Of a DNA stretch of 760 bases, positions 1-760 are shown one piece after another (the stretch's first letter is position 1; each line of letters starts with the position of its first letter). Source of the stretch: Escherichia coli (GTDB taxonomy: Bacteria > Pseudomonadota > Gammaproteobacteria > Enterobacterales > Enterobacteriaceae); assembly GCF_003334355.1 (NCBI RefSeq), contig NZ_QOWP01000103.1, one strand, 5' to 3'. A model generated the notes under the pieces. The model ran no database searches, was not told the origin of the DNA, and worked only from the letters and a program-made list of their open reading frames with translations. The translations under genes and the position numbers were made by a program.

Positions 1-760
1 GTGGTGTCAGCGGCGGACAAGGATAAGCACGCGTCAGCAGTTCCGCCAACACTGCGACAGCGTTGTCCTCGCGGCTTTTACCCGGTCAAAACAGCGTTAC
101 GGTGCCCCACGCCTGACGGATGAACTGCGTGCTCAGGGTTACCCCTTTAACGTAAAAACCGTGGCGGCAAGCCTGCGCCGTCAGGGACTGAGGGCAAAGG
201 CCTCCCGGAAGTTCAGCCCGGTCAGCTACCGCGCACACGGCCTGCCTGTGTCAGAAAATCTGTTGGAGCAGGATTTTTACGCCAGTGGCCCGAACCAGAA
301 GTGGGCAGGAGACATCACGTACTTACGTACAGATGAAGGCTGGCTGTATCTGGCAGTGGTCATTGACCTGTGGTCACGTGCCGTTATTGGCTGGTCAATG
401 TCGCCACGCATGACGGCGCAACTGGCCTGCGATGCCCTGCAGATGGCGCTGTGGCGGCGTAAGAGGCCCCGGAACGTTATCGTTCACACGGACCGTGGAG
501 GCCAGTACTGTTCAGCAGATTATCAGGCGCAACTGAAGCGGCATAATCTGCGTGGAAGTATGAGCGCAAAAGGTTGCTGCTACGATAATGCCTGCGTGGA
601 AAGCTTCTTTCATTCGCTGAAAGTGGAATGTATCCATGGAGAACACTTTATCAGCCGGGAAATAATGCGGGCAACGGTGTTTAATTATATCGAATGTGAT
701 TACAATCGGTGGCGGCGGCACAGTTGGTGTGGCGGCCTCAGTCCGGAACAATTTGAAAAC
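1..760 (+). CDS. insF: IS3-family transposase orfB (InsF-like DDE integrase/transposase), internal fragment truncated at both window edges; codon phase begins at base 2
   Basis: Seen in sequence: frame +2 (codons 2-4 ... 758-760) is open for all 253 codons. The translation has an HTH-like segment ([31 protein letters not shown], about 98..190) followed by an integrase core with catalytic D (AGDITY, 311..313), D (HTDRGG, 491..493) and E (CVESFF, 599..601), with K at +7 from E (620..622), and the conserved IS3 C-terminal motif [26 protein letters not shown]. Established knowledge: this matches my recollection of E. coli IS3 InsF almost residue for residue, corresponding to roughly residues 32-284 of the ~288 aa protein. 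The supplied ORF track does not list it, presumably because no start or stop falls inside the window. Confidence 0.95.
1..760 (+). mobile_element. Interior of an IS3-family insertion sequence (IS3-like); neither terminus is in the window
   Basis: Inference from the CDS identity: the window is wholly coding for the IS3 orfB transposase. No terminal inverted repeats, target-site duplications or flanking host sequence are visible, so orientation is known (+) but the element's boundaries and insertion context are not. Confidence 0.9.

Follow-up and report, generated by a model that had tools for sequence, protein, structure and literature searches.

Background

IS3 entered the textbooks as an insertion sequence in the 1970s-80s. 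Under the ISfinder convention, copies that share about 95% or more of their nucleotides are treated as isoforms of one element. Members of the IS3 family follow a two-step pathway that passes through a figure-of-eight and a minicircle, and their expression and chemistry combine frameshifting between orfA and orfB with a DDE core (PMC3219604). In IS3, the frameshift signal consists of an A_AAG motif and a downstream pseudoknot (PMC4066793); an overview of the family likewise gives A_AAG as the frameshift signal of IS3, on the authority of Sekine et al. 1994, with Sekine et al. 1997 also cited (PMC12095673). The family members IS911, IS2 and IS150 share with IS3 the -1 frameshift between orfA and orfB, the rve-type DDE core and the copy-out-paste-in route through figure-of-eight and minicircle (PMC3219604), but they belong to different subgroups, are distant in sequence and do not appear among the nucleotide matches of the DNA studied here; the mechanism is transferred from them by family membership. 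ISEc16, another element of Escherichia coli, belongs to the IS3 group and has the same gene organization and the same DDE motifs, although it is 1244 bp long compared with 1258 bp for IS3. Outside the family in the narrow sense, the retroviral integrases share the RNase H-like DD(35)E catalytic core with the IS3 transposase, whereas their N- and C-terminal domains differ.

We analysed a stretch of 760 nucleotides of E. coli DNA, hereinafter the window. It is almost certainly an internal piece of IS3 that comprises the larger, 3' part of orfB (insF), with the HTH-like region and the whole of the DDE core. Judged by its sequence, the element is already known, being IS3 itself, with no departure from the known element within the window.

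Identity of the window and its reading frame

Aligned to the full-length 1258-bp IS3 copy that we used as the reference (L001, 2048-3305), the window is identical to IS3 nt 454-1213 at 760 of 760 positions, with 0 mismatches. Megablast recovers 760/760 matches from numerous chromosomes and plasmids of E. coli, with an E-value of 0, far beyond chance; the exact matches include K-12 derivatives, e.g. MC4100, and the F plasmid record NC_002483.1, whose first base is IS3 nt 1 and which matches the window at 100% over its positions 454-1213. At the level of the element, complete identity (760/760) holds for both the IS3 of the F plasmid and the copies that RefSeq names IS3. When set against IS3 of E. 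coli as known from ISfinder, from insE/insF of K-12 and from the F plasmid copies, the window shows no difference within its bounds, and it covers nt 454-1213 only, without nt 1-453 and 1214-1258. The original prediction, which recognized an enterobacterial IS3 InsF and called the sequence near-canonical, was correct and, if anything, cautious, the match being exact; the nucleotide comparison that it named as a check gives 100% identity to IS3 in megablast and not the lower figure of a more distant IS3-family member.

Frame 2 of the plus strand (nt 2-760) is open throughout, with 253 codons and 0 stops, and its product corresponds exactly to residues 32-284 of the 288 of OrfB/InsF in the full-length copy L001; translation of plus frames 1 and 3 yields many stops. 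The program-made list of ORFs for the window contains short chance ORFs only, of 30-79 codons, and frame 2 is absent from it because this ORF extends past both window ends. Identical copies are annotated in RefSeq as 'IS3-like element IS3 family transposase, programmed frameshift'. The features of the window are as follows.

2-760, plus strand: internal part of IS3 orfB (insF), codons 32-284 of 288 (open frame, exact match, RefSeq annotation, dN/dS of 0.085 against ISEc16)
65-214, plus strand: HTH_21 (HTH-like) domain, window residues 22-71 (Pfam PF13276, E = 5.3e-12)
284-574, plus strand: rve integrase catalytic core of RNase H-like fold, window residues 95-191 (Pfam PF00665, E = 9.9e-28)
311-313, plus strand: first catalytic Asp, OrfB D135, codon GAC, in the motif GDITY (by motif position; conserved in ISEc16)
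491-493, plus strand: second catalytic Asp, OrfB D195, codon GAC, in the motif HTDRG (by motif position; conserved in ISEc16)
599-601, plus strand: catalytic Glu, OrfB E231, codon GAA, in the motif CVESFF (by motif position; conserved in ISEc16)
599-760, plus strand: rve_2, C-terminal part of the integrase core, window residues 200-253 (Pfam PF13333, E = 5.2e-19)
620-622, plus strand: Lys, OrfB K238, codon AAA, in the motif ESFFHSLK, seven residues past E231 (by motif)

The frame-2 product scores 302 bits against the NCBIfam profile NF033516 (transpos_IS3, 'IS3 family transposase'), for which the curated cut-off is 160, and covers positions 120-369 of the 369 in the profile, that is, all but the N-terminal third of the OrfAB fusion. 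E231 lies 35 residues past D195, the DD(35)E spacing, and we take D135, D195 and E231 to be catalytic on the strength of the established IS3-family DD(35)E motif; K238 is presumably the conserved K/R of DDE transposases. The product thus combines the traits of an IS3-family transposase, namely, an rve-type DDE core, the DD(35)E spacing and a K/R residue seven positions past the glutamate. A sequence search of this product against solved structures returned marginal matches to retroviral integrases only: chains 7ouf and 7pel match window residues 97-176 weakly (E = 0.0056).

Coding constraint and the minus strand

Comparison of the window with ISEc16 (L003), the nearest relative that we found distinct from IS3, reveals 26, 28 and 97 substitutions at codon positions 1, 2 and 3, respectively, of plus frame 2, with a Nei-Gojobori dN/dS of 0.085 in this frame; purifying selection is acting on frame 2. 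The two elements have the same amino acid at 215 of 248 compared codons and are 79.8% identical in nucleotides, with 4 codons missing from ISEc16 at window nt 132-143, an in-frame gap of 12 nt. It could be suggested that the window comes from such a relative, ISEc16 or another element of the IS3 group, and not from IS3 itself, given that related elements do occur in E. coli, where 625 records have a best match of no more than 80-90% identity, one of them being annotated as ISEc16. The 100% identity to IS3, as against 79.8% and the 12-nt gap for ISEc16, however, refutes the ISEc16 reading and leaves an assignment of this kind with virtually no chance of being right. Nearly as improbable is an extra gene on the minus strand, for which a 79-codon ORF at window 751-512 might be considered: it is listed among the ORFs of the window, and the equivalent frame of ISEc16 has no stop. 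The dN/dS of this antisense frame is 0.20, compared with 0.085 for the sense frame, which is the pattern expected antisense to a constrained gene; moreover, no RefSeq copy inspected carries annotation on that strand, and the window has neither an Rfam match nor a terminator-like site. We rejected this ORF as a gene and regard it as a codon-register artefact of the sense frame, which is the coding frame of insF.

No RNA family from Rfam matches the window at E values up to 1, and the promoter/terminator scan detected no terminators in it. Two sigma-70-like sites lie inside the ORF, at 520-547 and 637-666, with 9 of 12 matches each; both are weak, and they are not regarded as functional.

Anatomy of the complete element

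The structure of the complete element was read from full-length copies that contain the identical 760 nt, not from the flanks of the window itself. IS3 spans 1258 bp, and a scripted alignment of its 40-nt ends (L001) gives 28 matching positions out of 40, with 5'-TG...CA-3' tips; a repeat search based on exact seeds missed these inverted repeats, the longest exact run being shorter than the 9-nt seed. The genes and the slip site are placed as follows in the coordinates of the element.

IS3 nt 66-365: orfA, 99 codons
IS3 nt 328-332: AAAAG slip site (A_AAG), upstream of the window
IS3 nt 362-1228: orfB, overlapping orfA in ATGA

Outside the window (nt 1-453 and 1214-1258) lie the left inverted repeat, the promoter, orfA, the frameshift site, the first 31 and the last 4 codons of orfB, and the right inverted repeat. 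In the full-length element, the orfB segment is mainly translated within the OrfAB fusion transposase, whose C-terminal part it forms. For a frameshift stimulator that would reach into the window, the predicted folding energy of IS3 nt 328-483 is no better than that of shuffled sequences (z = -0.61).

Two common variants of IS3 were also observed. The first is an A/C polymorphism at nt 1214, the base immediately after window nt 760; it replaces OrfB K285 with Q and separates L006 and L010 from the other copies, and the K285/Q variants match the RefSeq proteins WP_085947771.1 and WP_085947598.1; the other variant, A/G at nt 200, is located in orfA.

Distribution

Of 5426 complete E. coli genomes, 4296, about four fifths, have megablast matches to the window. 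These amount to a total of 15,188 places, and genomes with a match have a median of 3 places and at most 17; 12,879 of the places are chromosomal and 2,309 are on plasmids. Identity of the best match reaches 99% or more in 4209 E. coli records, and in 4309 of the 5153 matching E. coli records a single place spans 80% or more of the query. In the plasmid collection, 1630 records match, the hosts being Escherichia (1,379), Shigella (140), some Klebsiella and Salmonella, and others.

The only hit in the phage collection is partial and lies in the terminal stretch of phi467 (LN997803.1, 38393-38594), whose record stops inside IS3, and 20 predicted viral or prophage contigs from IMG/VR (L012-L031) contain an IS3 60-mer, most of them holding full-length copies. 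A phage origin of the window was considered and set aside: the phi467 and IMG/VR matches do not identify its source.

Insertion sites of copies with the identical segment

We located, by script, the ends and flanks of IS3 in 10 annotated copies and in the 20 IMG/VR contigs with IS3. The identical 760 nt occur in clean insertions with target duplications of 3-4 bp, namely, CTC in L006, CTAC in L010, TTA in L016 and ATC in L021, and also in full-length copies that have no duplication (L001, L005, L007-L009, L013, L014, L017, L022, L025-L027 and L031). They occur as well in a copy from the K-12-like strain 9FA (L004, 2048-2050), where IS3 nt 1-3 read GCC instead of TGA, so that the conserved left TG tip is missing; this copy is otherwise intact and has no target duplication. 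Since the same 760 nt are found in clean, rearranged and tip-less copies, segment identity is uninformative on age or mobility: the identity of the internal segment separates neither young from old nor mobile from immobile copies of IS3. The step taken in the original prediction from high conservation to a recently acquired or active element therefore finds no support, the identical 760 nt being present in clean, duplication-free and tip-less copies alike, whereas its caution that the window does not allow the insertion context to be judged was well placed, as the flanks and the ends of the element lie outside the 760 nt.

The surroundings of two of these copies deserve description. On the IncF plasmid pMTY13867_IncFI (L006, 1323-3812), IS3 is inserted into IS2 with the CTC duplication; a fragment of a transposase pseudogene lies on either side, that on the right being annotated as IS2, and the iss serum-survival gene is close by. 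The tip-less copy of strain 9FA has an inverse-autotransporter pseudogene on one side and an HTH-domain pseudogene on the other.

Five E. coli strains from very diverse sources (Gambia, China, Switzerland, Galápagos seawater and the NCTC collection) share the right junction of an IS3 that lies between ymdE and dgcT, next to ycdU; its coordinates are 2048-3305 in L001, L007, L008 and L009 and 2048-4082 in L011. IS3 has no target duplication at this site, where the left flank is CAC or GCC and the right flank is AAA. In L007 (1862-2047), 185 nt of the ymdE pseudogene are retained directly beside the left end of IS3, and these are missing from the other four of the five strains; the loss of the 185 nt looks like a typical IS-adjacent deletion. 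In L011 (2820-3587), from strain MB06232, IS1 lies inside the IS3 transposase gene and splits the equivalent of the 760-nt window in two, which is, from the arrangement of the sequence, a dead copy in a nest of insertion sequences. The matches in strains C288 and C289 also display IS1 within the IS3 transposase gene.

Across the four strains in which this site has an unsplit IS3 (L001, L007, L008 and L009), we compared the flanks (1-2047 and 3306-5760) with the IS3 copies (2048-3305). The flanks are about 1-1.4% divergent between lineages (16/1200 nt in ycdU and 24/2454 nt in dgcT-pgaA), and between the IS3 copies 0-2 of the 1258 positions are different, with none among the 760 that correspond to the window. 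Had IS3 diverged at the rate of the flanks, L007 and L008 should differ at about 14 positions within it; they differ at 1 (Poisson P of about 1.5e-5). The flank substitutions closest to IS3 are 164 nt away on the left and 448 nt away on the right.

Proposed transposition mechanism

The mechanism by which this element would move is inferred from the literature on the IS3 family. A -1 ribosomal frameshift at A_AAG (IS3 nt 328-332) would fuse orfA to orfB, to produce the OrfAB transposase, which would then bind the imperfect terminal inverted repeats with their 5'-TG...CA-3' tips. OrfAB is expected to cut one strand at one end of the element and to join the cut strand beside the other end, giving rise to a figure-of-eight that would be converted to a circle and subsequently inserted, with a target duplication of 3-4 bp, in the copy-out-paste-in manner. 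To this scheme, the window would contribute the catalytic half of the transposase; it contains none of the cis-acting sites.

Discussion

Given that the internal segment is the same in copies of such different states, two matters call for weighing, namely, what kind of copy the window was taken from and how the copies have come to be so uniform. The window might derive from a defective or immobile IS3 that is truncated at an end, interrupted nearby or deprived of its partner end by IS-mediated deletion or recombination, and would thus be a relic that merely looks intact. Such copies exist with precisely these 760 nt: in L004, the left tip reads GCC and not TGA, and the copy at ymdE-dgcT has no target duplication and adjoins the 185-nt deletion. 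About half of the full-length IS3 copies examined have no 3-4-bp duplication, and a place covering at least 80% of the query is present in only 4309 of the 5153 matching E. coli records, which can likewise be counted in favor of a defective copy. Yet, all 253 codons of the window are intact, most of the IS3 copies examined are full-length, at 1258 bp with 0-4 differences, and an insertion sequence without a target duplication is not thereby immobile. On balance, we consider an origin from a defective copy rather unlikely.

The uniformity of IS3 at ymdE-dgcT, compared with the divergence of its flanks, raises the possibility of concerted evolution, in which gene conversion among IS3 copies would keep them identical. 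We put this forward tentatively, as an explanation that is rather improbable by our own estimate. The deficit of differences between L007 and L008 is what speaks for it, whereas, with four strains compared, regional variation of the substitution rate could explain the gap in divergence between IS3 and the flanks, and so could recombination that imported the flanks.

Gene disruption, adjacent deletion or the formation of a composite transposon can be read only from the flanks of an insertion sequence, which are absent from the window. The useful outcome of this analysis is, then, a negative one: a canonical internal segment of an insertion sequence is no sign of recency or activity. Should gene conversion between IS3 copies prove to be real, the canonical sequence would carry no information on how old an insertion is.
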